A stretch of 64,000 nucleotides of DNA from Owenia fusiformis (taxonomy: Eukaryota): contig CAIIXF020000001.1 in the NCBI GenBank assembly GCA_903813345.2, forward strand, positions 26,350,001-26,414,000, read 5' to 3'. Positions within the stretch are counted from its first letter, which is position 1, and the number at the start of each line of letters is the position of its first letter. Positions 15,631-49,761 of the stretch are shown piece after piece. Below the pieces are notes generated by a model, which saw only the letters and a list, made by a program, of their open reading frames with translations, was not told the origin of the DNA and searched no databases. The position numbers and the translations under genes are program-made.

Positions 15631-18600
15631 AGAAACTCCAAGTCTTACAACCTCAGCGCACCAGATGAGGATACATCTAAGTCTGGTGGTAGCCTAGCAG
15701 GAACCTCTCACAGTAAGAAACAAGAGAGGAGAAACAAACTCCTTGGAAAGACTGGGAAAAAGCCATCACAATTATCTATTGATGACATCTCAGCACCAAT
15801 CATACAACAGTCTTCTCCTGATGTGAAATCTCCTATTGTGCAACAGTCTTCTCCTGATGTGAAATCTCCTATTGTGCAACAGTCTTCTCCTGATGTGAAA
15901 TCTCCTGTAATTCAGCAGTCATCTCCTGGTGTTAAGTCTCATGTTATACAACAGTCCTCTGGTGAACTGAAGTCTGATACTAATAGTAATCATCAAAACG
16001 GAAATGCTAGACCACTAAGTCCTAACAGAGATTCCTATGTACACAAGGAAAATAACCAATCATTAAAGAGACAGAATTCATCTCCGAGGGAGGCTCCACC
16101 AGCGCCACCTAAGGACATAAGAAAATCAAGAGCTCCACTTTCACCACCAATTCAAAAGGCAAATGAGAATATAAAGGACAGTATACCATCTAGGAAACCT
16201 AGTGTTAAAGGACTTGCCCCAGAGCCACCAATAAAATCTTCCAGAAATTCTAGTCAACATAATCAGACTGAGGAGCTTATAAACCAAACTGAAAACTCTC
16301 TTCAAGCAAATACATTACCAAGGGTCAGTTCTCCAGTTAAATCTTTACCCCCATCAGAGGCCCCTGTCCAACCTGTTCCTCCCCCTAAGACTAAGAGACG
16401 GACTAAGAGATCTTTGTCCCCCAAAAGGACTGCTCCATTACCCCCTGCTCCATCTTTACCTTCTGGATGCAAGGAGCCCAAGACGGAAAGCAGCGACACT
16501 TTGAATGAGCTTATTAGATCTGCTAATCAAAGTGTATCTTCTGAACCTCTACCTGATCCAGTTCAAATTCAACAAACAGTTAATGATCCTCTAAAGGAAT
16601 TGTCTAATTCTCCTGATCCTGTGGTAACTAAAGAAACAGTGGAACCAATATATAGCAAGGTTGTTAAAACACCTACTGCTGAGCCTATAAAGAGACCCCT
16701 TAGGCCATCACAAGAGCTTAAACAAAACTCAGGTGAAGAACCCATAGTCGCAGCACAAGCTCCAATTCCTCCAAAAAGAGATCGAACAAAACGTAGAAGT
16801 AAAAAACTTTCAAACACTCAGGGTAATGAAGTATGCGACTCTGGATTATATTCAAATGTTATAATTTCTAGAAAGGAACCAGAAGTTGTTCAAGTACAAG
16901 AGGATACAAACTTAGTTTGTGATAATGTTAACATAAGTAAAGGGGATACAAGTGCAAATCCGACTGACATAAGTGCAAATAATGATGACAGTGTAAAAGT
17001 AAAATTCAGTGAAGAGACAAAATTAGAAACAATAAGTAAAGCGCCTGTTGAGTTAGCTGAACCTCCTGCAATAGAAGAAGACATTAGACCAATAGAGCCT
17101 CCATCTGATTTCTTTTTAAGTGATGATAGTGTGACCAAGAAAGATCCATTTGTGATACCTCTTGTCAGAGCAAGTGAATCCGTAGCAGTAACAGGTCAAC
17201 CTTCAAATTTACAGCCTCTTTCTGATTCAGAGCCTCCTTCTGATTTAGAGCCTGTCTCTGATTTGGGGCCTCCTTCTGATTTCTTCTTAAGTGATGAAAC
17301 TCTGCCAAAAAGAGACCCATTTATAATACCTCTTGTAAGGGCTAGCGAATCTGTTGCGTGTACCAGTCCACCCCCGTCTGTCACTCCACATACACATACC
17401 CCTATTGAAGATAATAATTCCGTTATTGATTCAAGCCCTCCAGAACCTGTACCTGTAACAGACATTGATGACATTCAGTTAGATATAACTGATGTTGAAA
17501 ATACATTTGATGATATCTTAACTGAAAATAATATTACAATCACTGAGGAAAACTCAAAAATAAGTGTTGATGATGCAGCTGATATAGATTGTGCTGATGT
17601 AGAGAGTGCATTTGATGAGATTCTTGCAGATTTTGACACTGAAGTAGAAAATACAGTAGCACTAGACAGAGAACCAGCTTCCCATTTGTTAAATCTAGAT
17701 TTGAAGTCTACATTCGTTGATCCTTCAGACATTGGTTCAGTCAGTCCGAGAGAGCCCCCACCTCTGCCTGAATCTGCTCCACCCCCTTTAACCCCCCCTG
17801 AGGAGGATCCATATCCCGATATTGTGCCTCCTGTGGAGTCAACTGAAATTACATTTATCCCTATTGACACTCCAGAAGCCACCTTCCTTGCTGTACCAGA
17901 GGTTACTAGCCTTGCTCTCACTGAAGATACTGTTCACCTCCCTCAAGTTGAAGACCCAGATGACTTGAGTTGGATTGCAACATTAGCTCAAGCTGAACAA
18001 GACGGTGAATTCACCAGGGAGGACGTTGAGGAAATATTAGAAATGGAAGCAGAAAGGAGAAAAAAATCAGTTGATGAACTGAGAGCAGAATTTTTTGGCA
18101 TCCGGAATGACGCAGTTAAAGTAAGCACCCCAAAGTTGAAGTCTGTTGAGAATAACAATGAGATAACTGTAAAACCAGTTGTAATTGAGGATAAGACAGT
18201 CTCTAGCATTAAATCTGATGTTAACACTGAGAAAAGTGTTGGTGAATATGACTTTATTCCACCGCCATTGCCATATAGTGATAATATGTCTAAAGTAACC
18301 GTTGTCTCCATAAAAAGACCAGATCCTCCACAAAAGGAGAAAGGCTATGGACTTGACAGTGATTATAGTGAGGACTCTGATATATCAGATAATGAAGAAG
18401 TATTTGCAGCAACATTTACCCCTGGTGATACTGACAAGAAAAAAGTTAAGCGTGGTACTAATGAAAGCAGTGATAGTGGTATTGCTCTGATATCATACAA
18501 AATTAACGAAAATGACAGAAATACCAAAGATCCATCCATCTACCCACTTGGTGATGAATCCGAAGATGGGGGAATCACATTGATTTCATACAATAAAAGT

Positions 18601-19069
18601 AAATCAGATGATGTGTCTCAAACAACGAAATCCATACCCCCTACAGTGGCGCCAGTTCCACCAAAAAGAGCATCAAAGTTGAAAAAGGATGAGCCAGCCA
18701 TGATTGCTGCACCACCCCTACCTAAGACCCCACCCCCAGATGTGATACCATCATCTATGTATTCATTACCAACCTCCACCTCATCAAGTATGGAGAAGAT
18801 GAAGGACATTGCAAACAGCAGCACATCAGGTGAAAAGATGGTGTACATCAAGGGCAGCAGTTCAGATAAACCGAAACCTCTCATAGAAGGCTTCTCTTCA
18901 GAATTGGACGAACTCGAGTTAGAGCGCAGGAAACTCATCAGTGAAAACAAGATGGTCAACAAGAAGGTCACTTGGGGTCAAGGGCAGCTGCAGGGTGAAG
19001 ATGTTGGTGCTACCGCCATTCTAAAGTCTCCACCACCTCAACAACCTGACATTGTACCCAGGCGCAAGG
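15631..19069 (+). CDS. Giant 3439-nt coding exon of a MISP/AKAP2-like scaffold gene (Pro/Ser/Glu/Asp-rich disordered region)
   Basis: Lies within the 1170-aa ORF. Acceptor tgctttcag| at 15630 (phase 0); donor AAGG|gtgagt after 19069 (phase 1), which matches the acceptor at 38404. Confidence 0.85.
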
Positions 19070-20235
19070 GTGAGTTTCTTTTATTAGTTTGTAACCTTAA
19101 AGTGGCAATAAGGCTTGTAGAGAGAAAATAGGAAAATTTTAACTTTTTCTGAGCTATCAAGGCAACAGTTGGCCTAACATCTTCTTCGACATACCTATTT
19201 TCTTAAAATGTATGGATAAACTATCAATTTCGGCATTAAAAAGTGTAAATTCAGTTCAAAGCTTCAAAAAGGGGATGTCCACTTTTATATTTTTAAGATC
19301 CACCATGTTTCAAGAGGAATATAAGCTGAAATAATGATTATCTAGGGGGTTTCTTTTTAGAAAATAAAAATAGATGTTAGTCTTGATGAAATATCCAAAC
19401 TTAAATATATTTTGACACTGGTCCATGATCGTTGAATGGCCCCTCTGCACTACTTGTTGCACCTTTAAAAAAGAAAATCTGCAACTAGTAGTTTGGACCT
19501 TGTGCATGTTTTCCCTAGTTTTGAATAATACAAGATTTTAGCATAGGGCAAAGGATGGTGAGTATAAAACATGTGTTTTGTGTATAATAGTGCACTGTAC
19601 TTTCCATAGTATAATGTTATTTATGTCATGCATGAACATTCTAAATTAAGATATAATAGATTAACTGTCAAACCAAACAATTCCAGTTTCTTTTTTACCA
19701 TACCAAGCTCTCCCTCTACGAATGTTGAACTCCATGACTCAAAAATGTAGATGTGATAGACATCTATATAAGATCATGAAATGTTAGTTTGTATAACTGA
19801 TCTTTAAAACACTCAGTACAATCAGTATATAAAACTTGACAGTTATTGACTGAAATGATTAAGTTTATTATGTAAATACTTGAACTTTTATGTAAATTCA
19901 TTCTTGTTAAGATCTCTCAATTTCTTAAGTATTCGAACACACTGTACCTGATGATGATAAAATTAAGACAAATTGATATAGGATTCAAACATGACCGTGC
20001 TCTATTCGAATTTCTCAACCAATCAGAATGCAGCATAGCCAATATAGAACGTTCTCTAATTCTCCATAGATGCACGACCATGCTCTATTCAATCTGCAAT
20101 TTGCATTGTTTTGAGTGACGTCACATCTCAGCTAGCTGCACATCTGGGGCTCTGTCCGGGGATAGCTGTTCGTATTCTTCCTTCATGCCCGTTCCACAGA
20201 CACGGCTTTTACTAATTCGTTTTTATGTTTGAATC

Positions 20236-20394
20236 GGAATAAATAATGATAGGCCATTCAATATGGTGAAATTCAGCACTCGTTGGACAGAATGTTAGTA
20301 CAAATGCACTCACCTTCGGTTCGTGCTTTGTACAACATTCTGTCCAACTCGTGCTGAATTTCACCATATTGAATGGCCTATCATTATTTATTCC
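20236..20394. repeat. 159-bp near-perfect palindrome, possibly the end of a Crypton-like element starting near 19923
   Basis: Outer 44 bp are perfectly complementary, followed by shorter stems and a tiny loop. Confidence 0.9.
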
Positions 20395-21207
20395 TTAATT
20401 GATTGATTGGAATAATTTATCTTTTGATTGATATTAAATTTATAATGAGAGTACTGTAATTAACAAAGGCCATGTACTGAAATAAAATAGATGTTGTTAC
20501 ACCTGTAATTACATTACATGTACATATACTAGCCAAGGGGCTCTTAAAGGCCACAATGGGACAAGGCGTTGTACTAATTAGAATTTGAAGTTCATTTTGT
20601 ATTGATAGAAATACATGTCATAAAGAAATTGATACACTGAGGAGGCACCGTATTTTAGAATTGGATGTTTATACAGTCACATATAAAATGATAAAGTCAA
20701 GTTTGAAGCAGTTAAAAGTTAAAATGTAACTTGTTAGAACTGATGCACCAACGATGGACTTAGAGATAACGAGTCTATGTGTGTTTAGAATGAAACACCT
20801 ATCAAAGTACATACAAAAATATATCATTGATAAACAGCCTTAGATCTCAATAGGTGCTGAACATTGACAAAATTAATAGGACCAATATATCAGGATTATT
20901 TGACTGAAAGTAAAAATGTAACCAAAATGCGTGAGAAGCGACAAGTGGCTGCCCATATACGATATGAGATCATAGGTCAGGGCAACGAAAACCCGCCAAT
21001 TAGAAAATGTTGATGTTAAAATGTGTTAAATCACACTTAGTTCAGCCCACACCTTATATGATAGGTCAACTTTGACGTTTCAGATTGGATTTACTTACTA
21101 AATTAACTATTGTGTAGATAAGAAATTCAGAATAAGATAGCGGAATCTTGTATCAGAGTAAATCCAGCTTATTAAGATAGAAAGATCATACGAACACATC
21201 TCGTAAA

Positions 21208-21409
21208 ATGTCTGATGATGAAGCTTTATCATGTACTGTTGAACCACGATGGGCAGCTGGGGCTGTACGCATCACAGATGATGCTCTCGAGGTCAGTTTG
21301 AGCTACTTACGGGACCTCTGTATCGCAGGATTACCACCGGGACATGAGAATAGCAACCAACAAGTTGTCAAGGTTGCGCTTACTCCATCTTTGGTTGATG
21401 CAACTACAG
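21208..21409 (+). CDS. Candidate alternative first exon (MSDDEALSCTVEPRW...VDATT) or fragment of an unrelated insert
   Basis: aaaATG start of a 121-aa ORF; internal donor ACAG|gtatta is phase 1, matching exon 38404. Confidence 0.25.
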
Positions 21410-22949
21410 GTATTAACAATATAAAGTTGATTTTTTCAGTAGATAAAGGATCTAGAAAAATGATATGCAACTGGTTCAGTAATGCCATTCTGACTGGCTG
21501 CTTTCAGAACCTTAGCTCAACCCCTTGTTTTAGATGCAGGATTTGTCCCAAGAGAAATATATATATCTCTTGAGGGACTGCAGGAACAGACTCATATTTC
21601 CCAGTAGATAAACCCTGTAGCTGTAGCCAGAGCCATATTTATCAAAGGTATCCAATACATTATGGGTCTCTAGCTATAGGGACCCAAATTTCAATTTTAT
21701 GGTTCCAAAATTTAAATTAAATGAATTACCAATTCATTTGACTCAAGTCAGTTGTTATTGTCTGAAAAAATAATTTTAGTGATATTATTTGATATTAAAA
21801 GTACAGCATCTAGAATTCTGACCATAAATGTCCTGAATATGTTTTAATTCATGATGATGATACTTTCCCCATCAATAGACTTTGGTACCTACCCTCTTTG
21901 CTTAAGATATCAATGCTTGAAAGAATTATTCAACTAGTTATTTGTATGACCATTTTCTTACTGAATTTTATATCTTTCACATTTTTCATTTTTGACTGGC
22001 AATTAATTCACTTTATAACATGAGCATTTTTTAACATTTTATAGTTATATTATTAAAGTCTATTGCTAGAGTAATTTACAGCTTAAGAATTTAAAATATA
22101 TTGGGGTGATTTAGGATCAGATATTGGCCCTTTACTTAACAGGTACATAGTAGCTTTTCATTACACCCCCCCCCATTTTTAATTTGAACTTTGTTTTGTA
22201 TGATGTTTAAGAAGTCCTGATAGGGTGTTAATAACCCTTTCTAGTAGTTTGATTTCAATTCTTAAAAGAGAGCTTCATCTGTTTAATGTTGTAGACTCGG
22301 ACAACTAGGATATGTCTCCAAGCAAGATTTTATACATGTAATAATAGTACTATATAGAGTTTGATTGTTCACAGATGGAGAATCACATAAGGTCAAATCG
22401 AATAATGGTTAAGTTCAAAACGGTCATTCCATGCAATATGTCGCAAATAATAATTGGTTATACAAAGTTATTAATAGATGTATATGACAATTGTTTTAAG
22501 ATGATCAGTTGGGATGAATTAGATGATATATTGTATGATCATTTGTCTTTTTTTCACACACTTTAGTAGTAAAAATCTTTTTAATAGTGAGGTTTCGCTC
22601 ATAAGTGGAAGCTATACGTAGTAAGCATTAGGAAGTGAAATTTTGTGTTTTGCAACAAAGAATACTTCATATATATAGATTATCATTTATCAATCAATTC
22701 TAATATCATTTCATCAAAAATACTTTTCTCTGCCAAATTCCTTGTTTGTATTGTTGATTGGATACTAATATGACTAAATGTCAATTATTGCTGTGATTCT
22801 AGACTAACAATTATGTCTAAAGTATATTAGGATTTACTCACTTATGCACAATGTTTTATAATGGCCTCTTATAGACATATGGAGCTACGAGACAAGTGGT
22901 GACACAGTACCCCAAAATTATAAGTTATAAACATAAGGGATTTATAAGG

Positions 22950-23295
22950 GAGTCTGAGATTTGATGCACTGGGTGAAGGGGTAGAGTGAAAGCCTGAAAT
23001 TTGATGTAATGAGTAAAGGGTTTAGAGGGAAGCCTGAGATACTAGTTTTTGATGTAATGGGTAAAGGGAGAGCCTGCGATTTGATGCAATGAGTGAAGGG
23101 AAAGTATGAAATTTGATGTAATGGGAAAAGGGAAGAGGGAAGTTTGAGAGATTTGAAGCAATGGGTAAAGGGGTAAAAGGAAGCCTGAGATACTAGATAT
23201 AGTATTTGATGCAATGGGTAAAGGGATATAGGGAAAGCCTGAGAGATTTGATGAAAGGGTAAAGGGATAGAGGAAAGCCTAATATATTTGATGAA
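22950..23295. repeat. Degenerate purine-rich ~40-bp tandem repeat
   Basis: Recurrent tttgatgcaatgggtaaaggg...aagcctgaga. Confidence 0.75.
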
Positions 23296-26129
23296 AGAAT
23301 TTTAAGAGGTAGAGGGGGAAACTTGAACAACTTGGAAGTTAAGATGAACTTTGAAAAAGACAGTTGTTTTTACTTTTTAGTTCAATATCTTTCATCTCTT
23401 GAGGTCAGTGTAACCAGCCAATAGATTTATTGCCAACTGTTCATGACATTATGGTCACGGATCTAATCGAAATAACTTTAAATTTTAGCATTCAGTCATG
23501 ATTATATTCAACATGTGTTTGCTGTATGTTCAAAGTACAGTTTTGAAGCGTGATAACTAAAAATATGTAGATAATTATGTGGATGTGCACTTTTTGAGAT
23601 ATCAGGAATGGGAAAAGGTGGTCAATTCTAAAATATTCAAATATCACTAAAGGTTACACAGTACAGGAGTCTATCATTATATATAAGATATAATGATATA
23701 ATGTGAGCAATGTGATTAGGTATTTCAAGCATTTTGGATACTTAATTGGGGAATCCATCAAATATATACTTTTTGAATACTGTATTTTAGCGAATTAAAA
23801 AAATCGCCGAATTAAATACAATGTAGTTACCAAAATCCCTTGGAATATGACATGTTTTTCATTTAGTACACTTCCGGTTATGAGAAAGATATACTGAGAT
23901 GGCTGGGCTGTTCAGATTTGTAGAAACAACAAAAAATATTGAAGAAAATATAAACAAGAAATTGTTCATCAACAGCAACAATGAGTATCTTGAGTTGGGT
24001 TGAATGGGAGGATGTCTGGGACACTTGAAACCCACCAATTAAATATACGCCAATAGGCCCAAAAACACAAAATCGCCAAATTAAGTAGCGCCAGAATCCA
24101 GAGTACCTCTCTGTATAGCTCTGTATAGAAAAAAGTATTCCAAAATTTGTAATGCAAATCAATTCATCATCATTCATATGCAAAATTGAGGGGGATATGG
24201 GAGGTCAATCTATGACATAACTACTTTTGGGAGGGACAGGGGCCCGATGAAAGACTATTCTTGGTCCACTTGTTTGGTTGAGGTACCATGGTTTACAATG
24301 GTTTACCCCTAACTATGTCTATACGGTTATTTACAAGTGAGATATACAGTAAAACCTATGTTCACATTGAAAGGTGTTCAGATTAGAGAGGTGTTCTGAT
24401 ATTCATATTTCACTGTATATTCTAGGTTATAAAGTGTCAGGTGTAGTCTGATTAATTAAGTACCTTTTTGGTCAGGGTAATGGTACACCCTTAATGTGAC
24501 ACCCTATAATCATTACTTATCATATATACGTATTGTATGGCATGCACCCATGGCCCATGTAACCCTCACCTCACCAGCTCACATTCATTTATTGATGTAA
24601 CAGTTGAACTTGGCTTCACTTTTCGGTTTCCCCTGCACAAATTCCCCCATGTCAATTTTGACAGAGAAATTTATATATCTCAAGAAATATATTTGCTTTT
24701 GTTATCTCAATGTAAATGACCTGTCCAGTCAATCACTCATATTATAGATACACATAAGACATCACCAGGCTTCAGCACAGCCACAAGAATTGCCTCAATT
24801 TCAGACTTCCCATTTATTTATATTGGTTGATTATTCATTGCATCATCTTTTCTTGGGACTATGCAGTGATTTGTCTTAGATGTAATAATGTTTACATATA
24901 ATCTTAAGTTTAACTGGGTGGTACTGGACAATACCTAGAGAATAGACAAGTGGAAATTAAAACTTCACAAGAATACTGAACAATGAAGATCACAAGGTTA
25001 TAAGTAATAGTTAAAGACAGACTTGAGGAGGGGTAAGTGGTCTTACAATTTATTTAACCTTACCATTGTTTTTAACATGTTAAGTATATATCTTTTATGA
25101 AAATATGTTATCTTAAGAAATATGTAAATTCCAACATGTACATTTTTACCCTGTGCAGAGAGTTAAGTTCGAAACTAACTAATGTAAATCAATTAAGCTC
25201 TCTTTTAAGGGTTGAAGTCAAACGAATGTAAAGCGTGTGTGGCGATTGTACCAAAACATGTGGTATAATATATTCCGAAGATATATGATGGTATTATTTT
25301 TGATCACAGATGAATCTGAGTCATATTTCTTTTCAGTTCTAGTCAAATATATTTTACTTTTGCATATTTCGAATATTTGTAAGAAACACAATAATCTGCA
25401 GGGTTATACTTGCTTACCTTGAAATTAAAGATGCTTAGGTGATCATGCCATTTGTTTGACACATGTCATTTATGTGACACAAGCCATTCCTCGACACATC
25501 AATATTGTGTCACCTAGAGTTTACTATTTGAGCAAATTTGAATTTCGTATCAAATTACTTGAGGCTGTATTTTCATCATTATCTGGATTACATGTCTACA
25601 CACATCATTTGCCATTTCGGTTTAAGATATCCGAGATCAAATAGCACATTTACATTATGTTGGAATTAAATTCATTAGTAGTGCTACCTTATTAACAAGC
25701 AGTATGCAAATAGGTATACACTGTACACAGGAATTTGAAGAGATTGAAGCAAATTAAATTGAACTTTCTATTCGGAATCGGCTACAGGATGTACATGTAG
25801 TACATGATATGATAAATGAGAATTTGATTTCAAAGTATCACTTAAAACTAAATGATCAAGTACAAAGGTAAGTGAACATTTTTTTATGAAAAGATGTCAC
25901 TGAAATTGCTTTAAATGATCGAATTTGAATGATAATGTTGCCTGAATGAAAAGTAGCAAGGTGAACCAACAGTCAAAGAAGGACAAAACACATTCAGTAC
26001 TGGTAATACCATTTGTGAAGGTAGCAATAGTCGGGGTCATTTTTGCCACAGCAAGGCCACAATTGAGTCAAGGTCATTTGTGCTACAGGATTAGTCAAGA
26101 TCACTGGTGTCACAGCATTATGCCAATTA

Positions 26130-26271
26130 TGCCTCGGTCACATTTGCCCGAATCTTGGGCGGCGCCTGGCAGATTGAGTGTTTTGTTCAATATTGTATTC
26201 AATTTTGAACAAAATACTCAATCGGCCGGCCAGGCGCCGTAGTGAAAATAGTAGCAAATGTGACCAAGGCA
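26130..26271. mobile_element. Small palindromic Harbinger-like MITE (142 bp); decayed relative near 53797-53900
   Basis: TTA TSD, TIR TGCCTYGGTCACATTTGC, internal inverted repeat. Confidence 0.8.
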
Positions 26272-27799
26272 TTAGATATTGATTCTCTGCAGGACTGAGG
26301 AGGAAACATTAATAGGAAAATTACTCCAGACTGTAAAGTACAATACCATGCCCAAGGTTGAGTTCTACTCATGACAACATGTTTTGCTAATGATGTTAAT
26401 GTTTAATGGCTTGAATGGGAAGGATATGTCCTAAGATTAACCTTCTTTTGGCTTTATTCTGAAAAAACACCTTTAATCGCCAGCTGAAAGCCTTTTATTG
26501 GCTAATTAAAAAACATGCATTCATATCAGATATAAAAAGAGTCCTTTTCGAAGTTTACATTAGTTTGTTTTTGTATTTCCTTTGAGTTGTTTTCTTGAGG
26601 AGTGAGGTGTAGACTGATTCACACTTGACTAGTTTTAACCTCAAGGTTTGTGGTACTACATTCATGTCTGACAGTGAACGTTTGCATTAAGTGTGTGTCA
26701 GATGTGCGTGCATTGAAATCTAACTGTTGAGTTTGCTATTCACTGTATAATTGTCAACCTTCTTCAAGAAAAGGAAATTTTATGCTTATGTTTGTTTTCT
26801 ACTAGGATTCCAGTACGAGACATAACCAACAGGTAAGTTACAAATATCTTTTAAGTTCTGAGCCAAGAATTACGAATACGGGGATATATTGACATCTGCA
26901 GATGGTTTTAAAGTTAAAATAGTACAAATGAAAACATGAATTCCATACTTTAATTAAGTATTCTAGAATTTGATGAGAAAAATACAGACATTTCGAAACT
27001 TTATCCCAGGCTTAAAATTAGTTAAAATGGATCTATGGGTACATCCATGGAGTACATTGAGTAATGGGTTAGTACATTTTATATTTTCAAAACATTTTAA
27101 TCAGGATGTATCTATTATTGTTAGGCATCTATAACAATATAGGAAACACGGTATAACATATTAGTGTCATCACTCAACCTGTAAATGTGTATGACCATGT
27201 TATTGACGAAGTAGGGGCTCACTTAGAGAGGGTGTCTCGTAAGTTGACTGATGTAAATACTTGTATATTTTAATTTCATATATTCATTACGGTGTATGAA
27301 AATCAATGATGCTGCACAAAAAAGGAAAATCAGGGCGGAGAAAATCAAATCATAAGTATTTGGTATTTAAAGAGGATTTAAGAAGTCACAAAGTAGAGGC
27401 CTTTCACCTTCTCTGAGTCAGTTCCTGTTACATAGCCATATGCTAAAGGTTGACGTCTTTCTGCAGTAAAGTTGACATATAGGTTAAATCTCTTTCTGCT
27501 GTAGGTTGTAAATGATCTATCAAATATGTTGAAGTCATCCTGACTTTGCAGGTACAGGTTAAAGGACTAATCGCAAAAAAAATAAACTCTGTTTACTTCG
27601 TTGGGATAATGAGGTATTCTATGAGACTCAGTGGCTTCGAATTTACATATTTCATTGAGGTGATATCTTTTATGCAGAAAGTTTGCAACATGACTCATTA
27701 ATGTTTGAAAGCTTTCACACAAAATGTGGTCTAATAAACACTTTGACCAATTTAACCATGGACAAGTAATACAAGCATGTCTAGCATGCTCTAGAAGCA

Positions 27800-28275
27800 C
27801 TACCATACATTGGTACTGTTGGACATTGGCACTACCAGACAATGGTACTGCTATTACAACTACCATACATTAGTAGTCTTATACATTGGCACTACCAGAC
27901 AATGGTACTGCTATATATTACAACTACCATACATTGGTAGTCTTATACATTGGCACTACCAGACAAAGGTACTGCTATATATTACAACTACCATACATCG
28001 GTACTGCTATACATTACAACTACCATACATCCGTACTGCTATACATTACAACTACCATACATCGGTACTGCTATATATTACAACTACCATACATTGGTAG
28101 TGTTATACATTGGCACTACCAGGCAATGGTAATACTATACATTACAACTACCATACATCAGTACTGCTATACATTACAACTACCATACATTGGTACTGCT
28201 ATACATTGGTAATACCATAGATTAGTGTACTACCACCTATATACTGCTATACATTGGCAATACCATCTAAACATT
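27800..28275. repeat. Composite minisatellite (actaccatacattggtactgctatacattaca variants)
   Basis: Interleaved ~32-bp unit variants. Confidence 0.9.
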
Positions 28276-30874
28276 GTCACTGTCATATATTGATATCATT
28301 AGACTTATACTGTACCTGTCTCTAACTTGATAGAAAGACACCAGGGCATATTAGTTCTAAAATAAGACAACAGAAACAGGATGTTTGTTTACTCAACATT
28401 GAATATGCCTTTTATCAGTCCAATGGCATCATTAGATTACACACATTATTTTTTGTCAGGCAATATTTGGACATAGTGTGTTTATCAGCAGTTCCTAATA
28501 GCTCAATTTTACCCCAAAGCATTCACAAATTGCAATGCATGCTATGTTGCAACTGGAAATATATGTTGTATTATATAATGTACATGCACTTCTAAAATAT
28601 GGAATTACATTGTATTACATTCATAATTGCAAAAGTAGCCTCCACTTATTCAATAGCAACATGCAATGCAAAAATTTGTTTCACATGGTCAGTGGATGAT
28701 CTGATATACGGTGATGTACAAAATGATGTGATTAACCTGCCATAGAAATGAAATTATAGAAGCCGACAATATATCAAACACACATTGGAAACTCTGTTTT
28801 GTTTTGCTAATGAAAATCATTGATTTGTTATGCAGTCTATGTAAAAAGCAATTTATCCATACACACCATACCGACGTTCATAGGTAGAATATTGTGATAT
28901 AGTATAGAGAAGTGCCGTAATAATTGATCTACTAGAGGTAAGGTAGCTATGAAGCAGACAGATATATGAAAGTGGTAAGAGGATTAAACACAGATGATGG
29001 ATTAATAAAACATTATTTATTATTACATAAAAAGGTAAGCATTGTCTATGTTAGCAAATTGCTTATGGTAGACAATTGTCTATGAATGACATCAATGTAT
29101 AATTGACAGAAATGGAATACAATATATTGACATAATACCATATCAACGGATCACTATATAAATGGATTACATTCAGCCAGGATGATCTACAATAAAACAC
29201 TTACCGTAGGTTCTTAATCTAGTTTGGAGTGTTGAGGAGAGTCAGACAGTTTTTGATCTGTAATTTTCATTTAATAGTCTGTAAAATCAGCATCTTTGAT
29301 ATAAGATTTTAAGTTTGGTTAGATTGGTCAATAAAGGATATCCATGGAGGATTCAGTTCACAAATAAAAAAAACAAATAAGTAAATTATTTCAAGACGTT
29401 TCCCCATGATGAGCTAAAATAGTTTGAATTGTAGAACTAGCCGTTTGACAGGTATTCATTACTACAGTTTATTTGACATGATAGTTGACATAAAATATAG
29501 TGTCTATATGCACAGGTAGTGTTTGGAGGGTAATAAGCTATGTTTGCTAGAACAGGACATTCAAAGCCTTTTAGCTGGCATTCCATAACTGACTCTACAT
29601 TGAAAATTTCAAGGTCTTCAGTGGTTGAAATGCTCTATATGGTCTGTGATCATTCATTATTCTCATAGATTATTATTGAAACGTAATCATGGATGCAAAT
29701 AAACTGGCGTCTCTGTAGTGGTAAGTACATACTGTCCAAGTAGTCTAAATTAATGTCATTGATTTGATGATTAGAGAAGTTATGTGTGATTATGTGAGAA
29801 ATAAGTTTAGGTGATCAGCTTGCTTGGATGTAGCGCTTGATGATAAGATAAGATGATGAGTGATATTTGACATTGTGGTCTGCGAAATAACAGATACAGG
29901 TAAGTCTTATGGTTATCATCTGCTTTCCTTTCTCATTCTATACTTTTGATGGAATTACACTTTTATGTGAAGGGTGTGCCAAACTTCTTGACTTGCATTG
30001 ATTTAAGATGTTAACATTGCTCTACTGAAAATATTTTGTATAAAAGGTAGGTTTTGTATAAAAGAAAAGTCTACAGGAAGGTACACAAAAATGATTTTGT
30101 ACTTTAATCCACATAGAAGGCAAAACGATTAAACTGATAAAGTGTCCCAATTATTGTGGAGGGTGGGTCTCTCTTTCTTTACATAGCCTTTTGAATACTC
30201 AATTTCAAGGTGGTATTAAGTCCAACATCATGTTGTTTACAATGGTCTCTTAGATGCATTGGATGATAACCTCAAAGCTGTATGCTTTCTTGTCATTGAA
30301 TTCCACATGTGTCCAATCACTTGATTCATCTCTGATATGGGTGTGATTACATGGGTATCTGGGTGTGTGAAGGTCATCCTTTGCTTGGTATGTGGGCTTA
30401 TGGGATATATCTGGTACCTTTGTCGAGTCTTTTGATTGGATGTCATCTTGTTGGCTCTGAATCCACATTGGATTGATATGGAGCCCTATGGATATGTGTT
30501 TGGATATGGATATATAAGGGTTATGTACTGGGAGGTTTTGGATATGGGGTTTATCCAAATGGAGATATGCATATCTACCTGAGGGACCGTAAATGCCATA
30601 ATGCAAGTATATGGAGGCTTTATTGAATCTTGGGATTATAAGTCATCTTTTACCATGACTGTCCCCTGTCTCATTCAGTAGCGGTGTCTGTCACAAATGG
30701 CAGGTGGTGACAATTTGCACATAAATGCCTTGTGATGTTGTATAATAGTACAGATGTATACCTTTACATGGGGCAAATAATAAATCTGGCTCATTTCATA
30801 AACAATTCTTGGAATTCAAGATCCTGTTCAATTTATGGTTATAACTACATTGCATCATCACCAGTTGATTGTAA

Positions 30875-31370
30875 GGGGTGGGGTCAAAATATCAATGTTC
30901 ATATGGAGACGAAAGTAATTTCGTTTGGACAACAACCCCCCCACCCCCCCTCTAGATGAAAGCTTGGGTCACTTCAAAAAAACATTGATTTAAAAGTCAA
31001 ATGAGAGGCATAATCGTATCCTATTTACCGGGTTATTATTACGGTGAATTAACACCAGTCGCAATTTAACTGCATTGAACTCTTCAAAAGGAGGAGGGAA
31101 AAGTACGGAATTTATTTGAAAAATGATCGAATTATTGTCTTTATCTACCGATATTTTGGACCTATGACACAAAAAAGCTCACGAACTATTGAAAACAAGC
31201 CTTTTTATCAGAACATAGCGCCAGAAAAAGTGGGTAAGTCCAATTATTTTTTGTATATCAGATCCGAATTATCGATGTTTTTTTGGTCAACGAAAGTGCC
31301 CAAAAACCCCCTCCCCCCTCGCGAAAGTACTTTCGTCTCCATATGAACATCGATATTTTGACCCCGCCCC
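30875..31370. mobile_element. PIF/Harbinger-like MITE
   Basis: TAA TSD; ~49-bp TIR GGGGYGGGGTCAAAATATC... with 3 mismatches. Confidence 0.88.
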
Positions 31371-33264: not shown

Positions 33265-34140
33265 GCGATGCCAGATGTTGTCGAGGAAGGACCTCTAGAG
33301 CGGAATTTCGGGAAACAGCTAAAATCTTCTAAGTTTTATAGAACTTAGTCGATTTTGTGGAGTTGAAGCTATACGTTTGCAGTATACACATGAAGATAGA
33401 AGCTGTACCTTAGTAGAATACATCTGATGAGCCAAGCTATACGTTTGCAGTATACAAGGGCAGATTGAGGAAACTAAGTGTGCGAAACTTAGTTTATTTT
33501 GGAACTTGGATTTTTGGGAAACTTTGATGCAACTAAGTGTGTGAAACTTAGTTTATTTATCGCACTGGAAGTAAGGGAGATCTACAAGACTGGACAAAAC
33601 TTCGACAGGGTGAAGCTATCCCCAGCGCAAAGCATTAGACGTATTGTCCAGCCTTCATAGACTGAGAGGAAATGCTGACATAACTTGTGTTTGAGAAACT
33701 TAAGCTATTTGGATCATCAAGGAACTTAGACGATTTACAACATTATTGGACTTAGTCAGTATTTGGTGAAACATTATTTTGGACTTTGTTATTTCTGGAG
33801 ATAGAAATATTTAACTTAGAATATTTTAACATCAGTATAACTTAGTATGAAATTAACTTAGTCAATATTTGGTGAAATATTATTTTGGACTTTGTTGTTT
33901 TTTTTGGAAAGAGAAATATTGAACTTAGAATATTTCAATATCAGTATCACTTAACATTAAATTAACTTAGTCATTTTAGAGGACAAATATTTTCACATGT
34001 TATATTTTTGCATATGTCGTTGTGTGCATGCTATATTTGTAGGTAGCCTTATTATTTAGTTGTGAAGAAAGCAGGCTACATGGACTTAGCAGTTGATGCC
34101 GTGTATTAGACGTCCTTGGACTTGGTAGATTGAAGATTGT

Positions 34141-35275
34141 GATAGTTTGACTTATACATCTACAGAGAAGAGGTTCTGGGACTTAGCAGTTTATTCAACG
34201 AGATATTTTGACTTTGATGATTTTGGGTCATTGAAGTTAGAATATACATCTACAGAGAGGACGTTCCAGGACTTAGCAGATTATCCAGCGAGATATTTTG
34301 ACTTTGATGATTTTGTGTCATTGAAGTTAGAATATACATCTACATTGAGGAGGATCCAAGTGATAGCCGTTCACAGAGCTGATAGTTTGACTTAGATTAT
34401 TTCACATAATCAAAGTTGAATTATACTACAACACAGAAAGAAGGATCCAGGAGATAGTCGATTGCAGAGCCTATAGTTTGACTTAGATTATTTCACATAA
34501 TCAAAGTTGAATTATACTACAACACATTGAGGAGGATCCAGGACTTAGGAGTTTACACAACTTGATAGTTTGACTTAGATTATTTCACATAATCAAAGTT
34601 GAATTATACTACAACACATTGAGGAGGATCCAGGACTTAGGAGTTTACACAACTTGATAGTTTGACTTAGATTATTTCACATAATCAAAGTTGAATTATA
34701 CTACAACACATTGAGGAGGATCCAGGACTTAGGAGTTTACACAACTTGATAGTTTGACTTAGATTATTTCACATAATCAAAGTTGAATTATACTACAACA
34801 CATTGAGGAGGATCCAGGACTTAGGAGTTTACACAACTGATAGTTTGACTTGGATTATTTTACATAATCAAAGTTGAATTATACTACAACACAGAGAGGA
34901 GGATCCAGGAGATAGCAGTTTACAGAGCAATAGTTTGACTTAGATTATTTCACATAATCAAAGTTGAATTATAATACAACACAGTGAAGAGGATCAAGGA
35001 GATAGCCATTTACCGAGCTGATAGTTGACTTGATGATTTCACATTATCAAAGCTGAATTATACTACAATACAGAGAAGAGGATCCAGGAGATTTACATTT
35101 ACGGAGTAATACCTTGACTTAGATGATATTACATCCTCAAAGTTGAATTACACTACAACTCAGAGAAGAGGATCCAGGAGATAGCCATTTACCGAGCTGA
35201 TAGTTGACTTGATGATTTCACATCATCAAATTTGAATCATACTACACTACATAGAGGAGGATCCAGGAGATTACT
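34141..35275. repeat. Tandem array of ~89-92-bp units (about 13 copies) inside the LTR-like element
   Basis: GGATCC or a variant at 34352, 34443, 34534, 34626, 34718, 34810, 34901, 34991, 35080, 35170, 35259, plus two diverged 5' units. Confidence 0.95.
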
Positions 35276-36339
35276 ATTTCAGGTTCAAGTTACAAGTACA
35301 ATACAAGACGTACAAGTATTACAACATATATGAACTTTTAATATTGGAGATACAACAGTGGTATATAGTGATCATCTACTTTAGTTTATATGGACTCTGG
35401 ATATTGTGTTCTTAGTGATTATTATTAGCTTATACGGACTCTAGATATTGCTTTATTAGTGATAAATATTAGCTTATATGGACTTTTGAGTTGTGAGTTT
35501 TGAGAGAGATAATAATATCGTAGCATTTTAACCTTCATACTTGACATTTAATGTACATCTTTATTTGGGCTTATAAACGCCACAATATACTGTTTTATAT
35601 TTATATTTAATTGTATATGTCTGTTTAATTCTTTAGGGACAATCGCACATTTAACGTGTGCCGTGTAACTCACCAAGTAAACACCGTTTACTAAACAGTG
35701 GGCCTATTATAAGCCACGCTACCACGTATATCCACAAAAATAGGCCAAACTGTTACAATATGTTTCTGAGAAACATACACTTTTGAAAAAATTAAGAACA
35801 AAATCAAGCTCAATTTGGGAAATTTCACTACAGATGAATGTCTCATATTAACAAAAAATAAACCAATTTTTCTAATGATAAAAATGTTGTACAAAACATA
35901 ACAAATTATAAAGAATTCATTTTCTCTGAACAAAAGGAATTAATATTAAATTATTGTTTCGGAATTAAATTAATAAAAAATGTGAATGATAGATATTTAC
36001 AGACCAGAAATTGAATTGTATATGATAATATTTGAATTATTAACATCCTGTGAATAGAATAATGACTTAGAACAATGGGATTATGCCAGGCTAGATGAGG
36101 TTTAGCTATAGGGGCACATTCATCTTGTACATGTATAAAATGCAAATAGAATACACTAATTTTAAGATCAAAGGAGGACATAAATTTGTCACTAAGACAA
36201 GTGTCTCAGCTTGACTCTTGAATCGGTTTATAGTGAAACCCTCTGACGTTGTAGGCCAAAGGTTCATTTTTAAGACCTTGAAACATAAAAAACGAGAAAA
36301 GAAACTTTGGCTCCCTTTTTGAAGTGGGCAAGCCAGAAA

Positions 36340-36454
36340 ATGGTTGTCGAAGCCAAAATGAATCAAGATGCTCGAAAAAATTATCAGGCATTTGTTAGGA
36401 GGGTTCGAACAAGTTCTGTAGGAGATGAACTTGATGTTGATGATACACTGGAAG
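36340..36454 (+). CDS. Candidate alternative first exon for a medium isoform (MVVEAKMNQDARKNYQAFVRRVRTSSVGDELDVDDTLE)
   Basis: aaaATG with an upstream in-frame stop at 36286, protein-like composition, donor GAAG|gtaaaa; phase 1 matches 38404. Confidence 0.55.
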
Positions 36455-37414
36455 GTAAAATTAAATCAGTTGTAGTGTTTGTGAAAACAATGTCATATCA
36501 GATTTGATTAATATGTGATCTAAATTCATGATAGATATATTTAACTCAATTTTTGGGCTCAATATGTTAGGATAGTATAGGTTTTACCTAAAACTAAACC
36601 AATGTAATTTTGTTCTATTTGACAAGGGTCTGTTTTGTATTTTTCAAATGTTGCTCTCTGTGCTTTCTCTCAAGGAGTGGCTAGATTTTATTCTGTTATA
36701 AAAAGAATGTATATTGGAATGCCGTGATATAAGGAGGAAATGTTAAAAGATGTTAGATTGTCATTGAAGTGAATGTTACATGTATTAGAGCCATGTTGAA
36801 CAAAAGTGAGTAGCCCTGGTAAGGTAGGTTAAAAAGTTGACATTGCACAAGTATTTCAGTTTTGAAGTGTTTAAAAGCGCACAATAAGATAAGGTACAAG
36901 TGCTGTATATATGGAATTTATTTAAAAGTTTTCACTGCATGCATTTTTGTGATAAAATAGTCCAAAGTGCAATTCACACCTTGAGCAAAAGTAAAGTTTG
37001 ACTCCACTGACAGAATATGCAAGGAGAGTTTAACATATATTTGGGTGCAAATGTTGAAGAATGTAAATGTAGCTTTAGGAATATCTGAAGTGATAAGTCA
37101 TTTACATTCAGTAAAATACTCATCAGTTTGTTATCGTATCATTTATCAAAATATCAAAACTGAAATGAAAGAATGTGATTGGTCAGATTCAACCTGTGAA
37201 TTGATGTCTCGATATATCACTCATTTTCTACCCTCTCACTATGATGTATATGAATGCAATTTTCATAAGGGTTGAAGTCTTGTTACTAATTTATAACGTG
37301 ATGGTGTGGTCCAATAAGTGAAATATCACTCATCAACATTGGTTACATGTATTTCTCTATTATATGCATTTAGTCTTATTATTAATATAAATCACAATTA
37401 TTTGTGAGCCTTAA

Positions 37415-38247
37415 AGTCCCCGTCTTAAGTTTGAAATTTTTTTTTATCATTCATTTACTATTTGTCAGGACTTAAAAAGTGATTTTAGAGATTTTTGAAC
37501 AAAAAAAAAATTTTGAAAAAAAAGTTGTGAGCATTTCATTTCTCAAATATTCAAATTTCCCGCCATTTTTCAAAAAAAGTTGAAATTTCTTTATCATCAA
37601 ATATTTCTTAATGCATTTCAAAAAAGATTATCTTTTTAACACCAATGCAAAGATTGAACAAATGACACCCTATTTCAATAACAAAATGCCATATTTAATG
37701 GGCCACTTCAATGTTTTAGCATATCAAAAATATTTTGAAACATTAGTGATGTCACTAAGGTACCAAAAACTTTTTGAAAAATATTGAAATTTTTTTTTCG
37801 ATGTCAATCTTTTCTAAATATGCTAGACTTTCATAAAAAAAACAATGTTGATTGTCTAACCTGGTTAAAAGGAAGAATAAATTATGTTTTAGATATCATT
37901 GTACCATTGGTTTCTATGAGAACTAAAATTTTGAAATGCATTTTTCTCAGAACCATTTTCATGCACTGATAAGTTCATTTCTCGCTTGTTTATCAACCGA
38001 TTTTCTTAATTTTTTCGGCAAAAAACATGGGAGGATGAATGCTATGAATTGGTATGAATTGTGGCTAATTAGAAGATATGAGTGACCTCTAAAAATTGGT
38101 TTTAAATAAATTCACAAATTTTGGAACAAAAAGTCTATCAAAAACCACTTTTTGAAATTAAAAAAAAAAGTTTCACATATCACACTTTGATAACATTGGG
38201 TTAGACTACAATATAAGCCAAAGTGGTTTAAACTTTACATGGGGCCT
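37415..38247. mobile_element. TTAA-flanked non-autonomous element (Kolobok-like), decayed
   Basis: ttaa|AGTCCCC ... GGGGCCT|ttaa with an imperfect ~20-bp TIR. Confidence 0.5.
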
Positions 38248-38403
38248 TTAAGAACCAAGTTTTACCATGTGCTTCCAAGAATATAATAATTTCCATGATC
38301 TTTATTGTATTGTCCTGCATCCTGCATTGTTGTGCTATTGGTGAACTATTGTAACCTCCTAAAAGATCCACCATAATTTAATGAATTTGTCATCTATTTT
38401 CAG

Positions 38404-39074
38404 GAGAACCAATAAATATAGGTCACCTAGGTAACAGGACATCTGCATCACAGAAATCATGGTCTGAACGCATACAGGCTGTAGATGATCTAGACGGCAA
38501 TTCCGTCCCTAAACCACGTAGCAAATCCCAATCTGCCCCTACCCCCACTTCTCAAACTCCACCCACAGTGCCTACCCAGCAGGGTCAAAAGAACGAGATG
38601 TCGGATGACGATGACAATGTGAGTAAACATTCCATTGCTAACATGAATGCCACAAGGCGCATGTTTGAAAAGATGAGTGTCTCCAAGCAAATAGATATGA
38701 GTAAGGTACCAAAGAGGAGCATATCAAGCGGTGATTATGTGCCCAATTACCTACGCCAAGACAGCAACACAACAGTCCCACAAAACAACGACAAAGAACT
38801 GAAAATCGCTCAAGAGAATCAGGATAGACTTAAATATGAGAGAGAAGCTGCCAAAAATGAACTAGCCAAGAATGAGCTTGTGATTATAGCACCAGAGAAA
38901 AGGGATAAGCAGAAGGAAATTGAGACCTATATAGAGCTGACTGAGGCTGATAGAGGACAGGAGTTGCGTCAACATGAGAGTTTGATTGACAGGGAGATTC
39001 GAGCACAGTTAGAGAGAGAACAAGAGATGAAGAGACAAGGCACCATCCCTAGTACCACCCAAGGGCGTAATAAG
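38404..39074 (+). CDS. Internal coding exon of the MISP/AKAP2-like gene (GEPINIGHLG...HESLIDREIRAQLEREQEMKRQG...GRNK)
   Basis: Acceptor ctattttcag| (phase 1), open frame continuous with ORF 38568-39149, donor AAG|gtgaga (phase 0). Confidence 0.88.
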
Positions 39075-47678: not shown

Positions 47679-49318
47679 GAGAAGGAACAAAGTGATGCTG
47701 AGGAACAAGAGAAGGCGAAAGAGAAATTAGCGCATGAGTCAATAATTGATATAGAGATTCGCGAGCAGTCACAACGTGAAAGAAATTTGGCAGAAGAACG
47801 AGGCATTAAACCAAGTAGCAAATCTGCCCCTCCACCACTGCCTACAACTACCCCACCTGCTGACCCCCGAGCCCATGTCCCCCAAGTAAAAGAGACAGTT
47901 ACCGTTACCAAGACAACAACTGTGGTTGAGAGTACTCCTTCCACTAAAGCCCCACTTACACGGAAAGCTTCTAACGATTCACTCTTGAGTAATACATCTA
48001 GCATGTCTGGCGGGCCACAGAATCAGAGGGAGTATGATGCTGCAAAACCTATCCTTCAGGGTCTAGTCAATTCTGACCCTTATGTGTACAAGCAGACTGT
48101 CACAAGTGAGGCACCCGCTGGTGAGAGTTATATAGCACGAGAGCTAAGAGAAGCCAAAGAGAGAGAAGAAGAGTTCAAACTGGCTCTGAAGGCAAGAGGT
48201 GTATTGGTCCCTGAAGGAGTAGATGATGGGTCCATTATCTATTCAGACCAAGATGTTAAGCATGTTCAACTAAATATCTCTAACGCACCCCACAGAACAA
48301 GCAGACAGAAATCTGCTGAGCAGTCACCCTCCACCAAGCCTAGATCAGACAGCAGGACAAGTAACCTCTCCTCAGATGGAAGCCAAGGGTCTCAGCTCCA
48401 ACAAGACACATCTCCTGAGGTGGTTGTGACCGAGACAGTCACAATCACAGAGTCAACCCCTGGTAAAGTACAGCCATTAAGTCCATATGAGCAACAAGAA
48501 TACCAATACATTCCACGTAATGAAACCGTCATTGAGCGCGAAATTAGATTAGCCAAACAGAGGGAGAATGCCCACAGAGAAAGCAGAGGCCTTCCAATTA
48601 ATAACCAAGATGAAGAGAAGACTAAGGAGATTATGATAGAGGTACTAAGCCCCACCCCCCAGGCACCAGTCAGGTCGAAGCGGGACAGTGTAGACAACAA
48701 GGCAATAAGACGGTATTCCACCAACCTCCTACAGAAGGAAATAGAGCAGGCGAACAGACGTGAGAAGGATCTACGATCAGGTGGACTTATTCGAACCACA
48801 TCTGAGGAACACATCGGAGAGCCTATGAAATATGTTGAGATACGAGATATTGAGTCACCCACACCTAAACCCAAATCCAATCCTTCTAAATTACCCCCTT
48901 CAATATTTGAAACCCATGAATCAGACTCTGGCATTTCACAGAAAATTATTAGTGGTAAAACCACAAGCCGTCGAACCCCTGAAAAACAGCCATCCATTCA
49001 AAATGGCTACAATGATAAGCCAGCTAGTAAAGTTGAGGTCACGACTGTTAAAGAGACAATTATTGCTGATAAAGCACCAATTACGCAAACAGAGACAGTA
49101 GTTACCACAGAAACAGTTGTGGTTGAGGCAGACAAACCTGTAGTCAATGGCGGTGCTATTGTTGTTACGGAGGTACCTAAGCCTGCACCAGTTGTTAAAC
49201 GCCCTAGTACCAAGACTGAAGGCATGGAGGCAAGGTACCAAGTGCGATCTGCTAATCCTGCTGAGTCTATAATAGAGCAAGAATTACGGGCACAGCGTGA
49301 ACGGGAAGCTGAACTCAG
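47679..49318 (+). CDS. Large coding exon of the MISP/AKAP2-like gene containing five EIR/ELR...ERE repeats
   Basis: Acceptor tgtttttcag| (phase 0), in frame with ORF 47787-49322, donor CTCAG|gtagga (phase 2). Confidence 0.9.
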
Positions 49319-49571
49319 GTAGGAGATTAACATGTAACTTATTAACATGTACCTCAGTCAGATATATACACGTGTTGAAAATTATATTTCACCATGATAA
49401 TGTTAATAGTGCCACAGAAGCTTTTTAAATTTTATTATTGATGGGTGATTTTATTATTGATGGCTGATTTGATAGTACAGTTGAACTCATTTTTATTTTT
49501 CTTTCATAAACTAATCTTACAATGTTGTCTCCCTACTAAATTTCATTGAAGTTTCATGTTTTGATCTTCAG

Positions 49572-49761
49572 AGAGCAGAGAAGAGTGTTGAAAAAAGATG
49601 ATGCACCAAATATAGATGTTGACACTTCATCAATAACAGTCGTCCAAAATGGCACAGATAATACAGAAACAGCACCAGTGCGGCCGGAACGCACAAAAAG
49701 CTCAAAACGTAAAAGTCTCCTTGCAGCCCAGTGGGAAGCCAAGATTCAATCATCAAACTGA
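49572..49761 (+). CDS. Terminal coding exon of the MISP/AKAP2-like gene (...KRKSLLAAQWEAKIQSSN*)
   Basis: Acceptor gatcttcag| is phase 2, matching the previous donor; stop TGA at 49759-49761. The C-terminus resembles the AKAP2 KRKSALALRWEAGI motif (from memory). Confidence 0.88.

Follow-up and report, generated by a model that had tools for sequence, protein, structure and literature searches.

We analyzed a 64,000-nt stretch of the genome of the annelid Owenia fusiformis (contig CAIIXF020000001.1 of assembly GCA_903813345.2), here called the window; coordinates are window positions and the gene features given are on the + strand. The region from 15631 to 49761 likely holds the last four coding exons of a real, expressed O. 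fusiformis gene that makes at least two proteins, a judgement that covers the gene, its two forms, the family of its tail and its inferred function taken together. In the long form, an EPS15/intersectin-like head with two EH domains would be followed by a flexible linker from a giant exon and by a tail of about 830 aa resembling MISP, AKAP2 and Drosophila Meduse. A second transcript would start at an internal exon with its ATG at 36340 and encode the tail alone, in a protein of 871 aa. As judged from its sequence, the protein very probably is a member of the MISP/AKAP2 family.

Gene structure and transcripts

Three long open frames and one short one are found on the + strand between 15631 and 49761. 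They correspond to four exons:

15631..19069, + strand, giant exon of 3439 nt; acceptor ..tgtgctttcag, starts in phase 0 and ends AAG G/gtgagt (phase 1); residues 490-1636 of the 2468-aa protein
38404..39074, + strand, exon 2; acceptor ..ctattttcag, completes the split codon and ends AAT AAG/gtgaga (phase 0); residues 1637-1859
47679..49318, + strand, exon 3, the main tail exon; acceptor ..gtgtttttcag, ends CTC AG/gtagga (phase 2); residues 1860-2406
49572..49761, + strand, last coding exon; acceptor ..gatcttcag, stop codon TGA at 49759-49761; residues 2406-2468

A sequence-only reading of this DNA had proposed a four-exon model of about 1979 aa. The exons are bounded by GT-AG signals in compatible phases and, joined by script, they give 1979 codons with a single terminal stop. 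The model was right in all its exons and phases but lacked the 5' end, position 15631 being a splice acceptor and not a start. Since the giant exon opens at an acceptor and its first 804 codons contain no Met, it is an internal exon. Exon 2 opens the MISP/AKAP2-like module and contains an N-terminal W motif and the first of six repeats, with the other five in exon 3.

In a word-indexed search, the exon-3 translation was 100% identical to a public O. fusiformis protein of 2468 aa (P0004), labeled 'unnamed protein product [Owenia fusiformis]' at NCBI and 'EH domain-containing protein' in UniRef. When this protein was compared with the window by tblastn, its residues 490-1637, 1636-1859, 1859-2406 and 2405-2468 fell exactly on the four exons, with 98-100% identity, which means that the public model and the sequence-only reading share their junctions. 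Residues 1-489 had no match in the window with short words and E values up to 50, only chance-level hits, placing the start of the gene more than 15.6 kb upstream of the giant exon.

RNA data were mapped on positions 18800-38700. They comprised two raw RNA runs chosen by species label (X21 and X19) and two contig sets of unknown kind (X14 and X15). The GT..AG joint 19068/9>38403/4, between the giant exon and exon 2, was crossed by 12 reads with 11 start places in X21 and by one read in X19. A single 3306-nt contig of X14 and a single 2974-nt contig of X15 also span it, both with 255 letters or more on either side. In most stranded libraries, a first mate on the - strand indicates + strand RNA, and this was the orientation of all 13 reads. 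Reads joining 19069 to 38404 had been set beforehand as a check on the sequence-only reading, and the 13 reads and two contigs bear it out.

A second GT..AG joint, 36452(+2)>38402(+2) with the donor after 36454, was crossed by seven reads with seven start places in X21 and by one read in X19. All eight were oriented as + strand RNA. Two splice routes converge on the acceptor at 38404. The second route begins inside the 19-kb intron that follows the giant exon, with the following feature:

36340..36454, + strand, coding part of an alternative first exon; ATG at 36340 in good context (gaaaATGg), in-frame stop at 36286, donor in phase 1

The phase of this donor matches that at the end of the giant exon. 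With an upstream ATG and a matching phase, the joint opens a protein of 871 aa that consists of a 38-aa leader and the last three exons. This is the usual size of family members elsewhere, and the product resembles their short layout. The sequence-only reading described a single long product and missed both the internal first exon and the short form.

The tail and its family

The sequence-only reading quoted six repeats and the protein end KRKSLLAAQWEAKIQSSN; all six copies and the end are present in the translations as quoted. The repeats follow the helical motif pattern E-S-x-I-x-R-E-I-R-x-x-x-E-R-E. In the list below, bit scores are from a repeat hidden Markov model (HMM) built from 183 repeats of other species only, avoiding circularity, and helices are those of a structure model of exon 3, numbered from its start. 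The two end motifs are included.

38451..38474, + strand, N-terminal motif KSWSERIQ, residues 1653-1660, assigned by eye
38970..39017, + strand, repeat 1, HESLIDREIRAQLERE, 21.3 bits
47733..47780, + strand, repeat 2, HESIIDIEIREQSQRE, 11.4 bits, helix 22-40
48120..48167, + strand, repeat 3, GESYIARELREAKERE, 32.6 bits, helix 151-172
48519..48566, + strand, repeat 4, NETVIEREIRLAKQRE, 30.8 bits, helix 284-302; aligns with ETPIEREIRMAMEREE of bird MISP (P0132, residues 360-387)
48720..48764, + strand, repeat 5, TNLLQKEIEQANRRE, divergent, followed by KDLRSGGLIRTTSEE; found with the loose pattern only, helix 337-367; aligns with YVQREIEQETKREEDLKREGRL of bird MISP
49260..49307, + strand, repeat 6, AESIIEQELRAQRERE, 28.1 bits, helix 527-545; pairs with bird MISP 610-644 at E 3e-4
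49705..49746, + strand, C-terminal motif KRKSLLAAQWEAKI, from a comparison of the ends of 21 proteins

The repeats are not due to chance. A loose version of the pattern matches the 832-aa tail six times. Among 5000 shuffles that preserve composition, all but one had no match, and that one had a single match. With the HMM from other species, five of the six copies in Owenia scored 11.4-32.6 bits, and no whole-protein shuffle among 100 exceeded 2.5 bits. Repeat 5 was missed by this HMM. It sits in a separately conserved block of the family with the consensus ..LQ.EI..EK.RE..LR.EGKI.TTSEE. A small repeated motif is a feature of the family as described by Zhu et al. in 2013 (PMC3601349), and it is present in the Owenia tail.

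An AlphaFold2 model of exon 3 was made from a 45-sequence alignment (mean pLDDT 56.7, pTM 0.26), with 301 of the 546 residues below pLDDT 50. The model has no globular fold; its isolated helices coincide with repeats 2-6, where ten-residue blocks reach pLDDT 75-95, the helix of repeat 5 having values up to 95. In the model, the repeats are short predicted helices on disordered spacers.

Both ends of the module carry a W motif. To the eye, KSWSERIQ is similar both to the YWESRM or QWETI close to the N-terminus of short homologs and to QWEAKIQ at the C-terminus of the protein itself. In an unscored pattern scan of 19 proteins, a motif of the W-[ES]-x-R-[IM] type was found at residue 1655 in exon 2 and within residues 21-109 of short homologs. 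The stretch around KSWSERIQ also gave a weak BLASTP match to the C-terminus of the Homarus protein (E 6.3). The position of the W motif fits exon 2 being the putative start of an ancestral unit. At the other end, comparison of 21 C-termini by eye gave SLLAAQWEAKIQ for Owenia, SALIAQWENRIQ for four proteins of crustacean type, SALIAQWEQRIQ for P0125, VAAQWEQI for P0036 and MAKRWEAG for bird MISP. The Homarus and Procambarus proteins end in RRRSALIAQWENRIQ, compared with KRKSLLAAQWEAKIQ in Owenia, and bird MISP has KSDMAKRWEAGQ near its end.

The direct check against the Pfam family AKAP2_C (PF15304) failed. The profile matched none of the four exon translations at E values up to 1, nor the whole 2468-aa protein at E values up to 0.1. 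Membership in the MISP/AKAP2 family, as claimed by the sequence-only reading, is nonetheless supported by the protein's relatives, by a profile built from them, by alignment with MISP and by crustacean proteins that bridge the two. A phmmer search with exon 3 against 1.84 billion representatives returned 112 proteins at E<=1e-3, itself included, 41 of them at E<=1e-10. Among the other 111, 34 score at least 27 bits with AKAP2_C, the curated cut-off and an operational threshold of one model rather than a biological feature. A further 47 match the profile below it (whole-protein E<=0.01), and in all but two of these AKAP2_C is the only family listed.

A profile of exon 3 and 44 of the phmmer hits (A1), with a consensus that includes ETPIEREIRLARERE, GES.IARELREQREREEELR and AESKIE.ELREMREREEELR, matched 19 proteins at E<=1e-5 among 8000 candidates scored in a named database. 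They include proteins of Elysia and Dinothrombium labeled 'A-kinase anchor protein 2 C-terminal domain-containing' in UniRef and those of the crustaceans Homarus and Procambarus. In the same search, of 5.8 billion proteins, A1 reached bird MISP (E 6.1e-8), the one sequence that stands for vertebrates in our comparison, which itself scores 115.5 bits with AKAP2_C. Aligned by hhalign, A1 and bird MISP match with a probability of 97.0% (E 1.1e-10) over 98 columns, in which repeats 4 and 5 and their spacer correspond to MISP 360-460. By BLASTP, exon 3 itself matches bird MISP at E 2e-8 with 33% identity over 112 aa, followed by a second, colinear match at repeat 6 (E 3e-4). Among language-model features in the Atlas, the three best hits of exon 3 were AKAP2_C clusters (0.91, 0.89 and 0.89), which we take as a lead only. 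A PDB sequence search returned no match for the tail.

One alternative is that a charged-helix motif (E-x-x-I-x-R-E-I-R...E-R-E) arose independently, so that the likeness to MISP and AKAP2 would be uninformative on descent or function. It draws on the failed Pfam check, on the shortness of most hits among the relatives, which lie over the motif positions of the profile, and on the disorder of most of the protein, where alignments are least reliable. Convergence does not readily explain the conserved order of the parts. On bird MISP, repeats 4 and 5 fall together with their spacer as one block, repeat 6 follows further on at 610-644, and both proteins carry a W-E motif in roughly their last 15 residues. 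Owenia and AKAP2_C are bridged by the Homarus and Procambarus proteins, which align with the former at E 9e-13 and with the latter over positions 12/13-342 of its 342 (58-59 bits). The position at which exon 3 starts is also common to fragments from many animals (such as P0013, P0017, P0020, P0023, P0027 and P0040), which show intron-like residues and then ..QE.EQSE... With order, bridge and exon boundary against it, we consider convergence very improbable and the tail best read as a family member.

The EH-domain head and the giant exon

The sequence-only reading noted a very large extra N-terminal region. The region is large, but 489 residues further upstream, with an EPS15-like pair of EH domains, were missed. 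These residues are encoded outside the window. In P0004, Pfam EH matches the N-terminus at 73.8 bits in two stretches, the best at 114-192, and no other Pfam family was found on the whole protein. A PDB sequence search gave 19 hits (E 6e-11 to 3e-3), every one an EH domain from EPS15, EHD, intersectin, REPS1 or a related protein. The nearest named shorter protein to the head is EPS15-like 1 of Limulus, with 24% identity over 74% of the 489-aa head (E 4.7e-10). For the head of an ortholog, clusters of EH, EPS15 and intersectin are listed in the Atlas.

The head resembles EPS15, EPS15L1 and intersectin in its N-terminal EH domains and in the region matching EPS15-like 1. It differs in having two EH stretches and not three, and the C-terminal half of the Owenia protein is instead the MISP/AKAP2-like tail. 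The C-terminal parts of EPS15 (a DPF array and UIMs) and of intersectin (SH3, DH-PH and C2) were not found, with only three DPF in 2468 aa. The protein is therefore not an EPS15 or intersectin ortholog and only has a similar head.

Five other long proteins of 1876-2084 aa combine an EH head with the tail. They are Mya arenaria LOC128215553, Dreissena polymorpha LOC127856627, the Mercenaria mercenaria 'titin homolog' (P0007), P0036 and P0061. All share one layout with Owenia: an EH pair, conservation to about residue 500, a long unconserved middle and the repeat tail. The Owenia head matches all five by BLASTP (E 1e-46 to 1e-68), from residues 11-16 to 362-495 in four of them and over 81-495 in Mya. 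The tail matches four of the five by BLASTP; for the Mercenaria protein only the head matched, though the exon-3 search had matched its tail. The orthologs score 17.8-31.7 bits with AKAP2_C. Unlike the 2468-aa Owenia protein they have shorter middles, and the three named bivalve proteins end in KRSxFEQTS (KRSHFEQTS) rather than QWE..I. No EH domain occurs in the models of gastropods, crustaceans and mites (680-1202 aa), which makes the short layout the common one.

Two short motifs closely follow the EH/coiled-coil head, outside the window. All five long orthologs retain a DPF near residue 345 (349 in P0004). Some 35 residues further along, the three named bivalves also retain an NPF (384 in P0004), where P0036 shows another DPF and P0061 lacks both. 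From its place beside the EH domains, the NPF could bind them in cis or link molecules to each other, and the DPF/NPF pair may regulate the head.

The combination of head and tail might also be an artifact of the public model, with the EH exons belonging to a separate upstream gene. The true product would then start in or just before the giant exon, or would be the 871-aa form alone. Automatic annotation across long introns does merge neighboring genes. Such a merger would suit the position of the EH exons outside the window, where no observed read joins them to 15631, and the absence of EH domains from the gastropod, crustacean and mite models. It accounts poorly for the good acceptor (tgtgctttcag) before 15631 and the Met-free codons after it. 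Nor does it account for the five independently annotated or predicted long proteins of other species, or for a conservation of the head that reaches residue 495, within the first residues of the giant exon. A chimeric model is, in our judgement, highly improbable, and we retain the long form with head, linker and tail.

The giant exon (about 1150 aa) probably encodes a fast-evolving flexible linker of which length rather than sequence is kept. Proline (12.1%) and serine (12.7%) are abundant in it, and this middle part of the protein has no BLASTP match to any of the five long orthologs. Tandem Repeats Finder reported a coding repeat near its start:

15805..15960, + strand, tandem repeat of 36 nt x 4.3 with 88% matches, giving SPDVKSPIVQQS units

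Further on, at about 17100-17360 (residues 980-1065 of P0004), there is a duplicated unit of about 32 aa, PPSDFFLSD..K(K/R)DPF(V/I)IPLVRASESVA, with a DPF in each copy. The two copies are separated by PSDLEP-type repeats of 18/36 nt at 17200-17282. A clathrin-box-like LLNLD motif lies at residue 1175 of P0004. The duplicated unit, the PSDLEP-type repeats and LLNLD have no counterpart in the five long orthologs. Compared with shuffles, the exon has two DPF (P 0.015), one LLNLD (P 0.029) and seven PxxPx[RK] (P 0.003).

Several points weigh against the overall reading. The junctions 39074>47679 and 49318>49572 rest on splice signals, phase and the public model. That the EH exons, which lie outside the window, connect to the giant exon is taken from the public model and the orthologs. 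For the short isoform the evidence is eight reads in two runs of one study; its joint 36454>38404 is absent from both contig sets, and its 38-aa leader has no BLAST match below E 2.6 among the proteins collected in the analysis. The Owenia protein has no AKAP2_C match, and the three named bivalve orthologs fall short of the cut-off (24.7, 20.7 and 17.8 bits). AKAP2_C is not matched in 30 of the 111 relatives, and most of its hits on the others are limited to profile positions of about 14-57 or 197-260, the family signal being largely in short, charged helical motifs. Lastly, an endocytic role draws no support from the endocytic motifs of the giant exon, which were set aside because the DPF pair and LLNLD have no counterpart in the middles of the five orthologs.

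Proposed function and intronic signals

The tail consists of a W-S-E-R-I motif, five canonical copies and one divergent copy of a predicted helix of about 20 residues, disordered spacers and an end motif Q-W-E-A-K-I. We propose that it contacts cortical or microvillar F-actin through several weak helical contacts. By analogy to MISP, to AKAP2, a protein of cortical actin, and to CG2556/Meduse, we lean slightly towards the view that the tail binds actin. MISP is described as an F-actin bundler at microvillar rootlets in which no recognizable actin-binding motif was identified (Morales et al. 2022, PMC9097542). Its F-actin binding or bundling and its cortical or microvillar location are also reported in PMC3601349 and PMC11101845, and actin-binding potential is said to be spread along the protein (PMC9097542, citing Kumeta 2014). 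Multivalent weak helical contacts would fit such a spread.

Like MISP, the Owenia tail has a small repeated helical motif (ETPIEREIR.. pairs with NETVIEREIR.., and YVQREIEQETKREEDL with LLQKEIEQANRREKDL) and the same order of the late repeat and the C-terminal W-E motif. MISP is mostly disordered, and the Owenia tail is mostly disordered in its model. The two differ in that identity is 33% over only 112 aa and the Owenia protein fails the Pfam model. Upstream, Owenia carries two additional repeats, and its long form extends the N-terminus by 1636 residues that include EH domains.

AKAP2 is placed in a common Pfam family with MISP, with a shared N-region, repeat and C-region (PMC3601349). Compared by description, the Owenia locus is like PALM2-AKAP2 in that the EH head and giant exon, or the internal first exon, are spliced onto one acceptor. 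It differs in that the upstream partner is an EH-domain module and not paralemmin. Vertebrate AKAP2 exons can be joined by splicing to upstream exons of another gene, paralemmin-2, and AKAP2 has a start of its own as well.

Drosophila CG2556/Meduse is located at the enterocyte brush border and the oocyte cortex and associated with latrunculin-sensitive cortical actin (bioRxiv 10.1101/2021.09.19.457819). According to the same preprint, it has a 7-aa first coding exon before a large intron, comparable to the 38-aa first exon of the Owenia short form. It differs from the Owenia protein, again by description, in its length of 470 aa and in having no EH domain among the features reported there.

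The name of the family raises the possibility that the protein is a true A-kinase anchor, tethering PKA through an amphipathic RII-binding helix rather than binding or bundling actin. The role of AKAP2 and the several predicted amphipathic helices of the tail would agree with this. No RII-binding helix came to light in the tail, though no search was aimed at one. In published descriptions MISP, with which the tail aligns, binds actin and is not presented as an AKAP (PMC3601349, PMC9097542), and anchoring of PKA could in any case hold alongside actin binding. We consider such an anchor in place of an actin binder improbable, and return to the actin-binding tail.

In the long form, the EH head would bind endocytic partners with NPF motifs and so bridge membrane traffic to actin. 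This bridge, drawn by analogy, is a tentative suggestion that we hold to be rather doubtful. More speculative still is to see the gene as a 'Rosetta stone' fusion, in which an EH endocytic head is spliced through a linker to an actin-rootlet module in at least an annelid and several bivalves, with an internal promoter keeping the tail-only form. The long form would couple clathrin-type endocytosis at the base of microvilli to rootlet actin, and the two-promoter design would be an independent parallel to PALM2-AKAP2. If the fusion reading is true, EH-domain adaptors and proteins of the MISP family should be functionally linked in animals that encode them separately.

The sequence-only reading called the protein a little-studied non-vertebrate member of the family. 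This member is indeed unstudied, but invertebrate relatives, annelids included, were already reported in 2013. Using iterative HMM searches, Zhu et al. found remote MISP/AKAP2 homologs in cnidarians, molluscs, annelids (Capitella and Helobdella) and arthropods, with Drosophila CG2556 among them (PMC3601349). The term 'EH domain' is absent from the text of that paper. A full-text literature search, judged by titles and the start of abstracts, returned no description of an EH domain fused to a MISP/AKAP2-like protein, and 'AKAP2_C' was found in the full-text literature in an unrelated context only. The protein is an unstudied member of a known family whose fused EH layout we did not find described.

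Published accounts of the range of the family are inconsistent. In PMC9145010, a 2022 paper on evolution, MISP is called vertebrate-specific and AKAP2 homologs outside vertebrates are limited to tunicates, with earlier distant homologs acknowledged. The 2022 preprint that named CG2556 Meduse states that it has no apparent vertebrate homolog (10.1101/2021.09.19.457819); the link between CG2556 and MISP/AKAP2 seems to have been overlooked. An annelid member that aligns directly with bird MISP helps to tie these accounts together. It also bears on how MISP binds actin, a mode left unexplained in PMC9097542, for which the Owenia tail and the alignment of 45 relatives offer a candidate in a few conserved helices of about 20 residues. 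The candidate actin-contact helices sit on disordered spacers between conserved end motifs and are testable singly. From the EH fusion common to the annelid and the bivalves comes a hint that endocytic adaptors and microvillar actin may be linked; its value is that of a lead, not a surprise.

The DNA around the exons, in a window that is AT-rich (about 30-42% G+C), showed several further signals. A 33-bp minisatellite at 14212-14537 (10 copies, 91% matches), some 1.1 kb before the giant exon, gives rise to spurious open frames 149-175 aa long. In the intron after the giant exon, a satellite-like array with a period of roughly 90 bp lies at 34147-35279. RNA depth over 32744-35399 is strongly biased to the strand of the gene (for example 20.1 against 2.1 in X21), with many mixed variant positions. 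This signal at 32.7-35.4 kb could come from retained pre-mRNA, from copies elsewhere in the genome or from an upstream part of the short transcript. Further exons were considered there and rejected, as the segment has no ORF of at least 100 aa and is largely the ~90-bp satellite; we left it as unexplained intronic or repeat signal. In four other intron segments (19070-20800, 26100-26770, 30088-31415 and 37392-38403), RNA depth is high for both strands. Over half the reads there fit only partly and loose ends are numerous, as would be expected of dispersed repeats or transposon fragments that are transcribed at other places in the genome. At 53795-53899 lies a short relative of 26129-26272.

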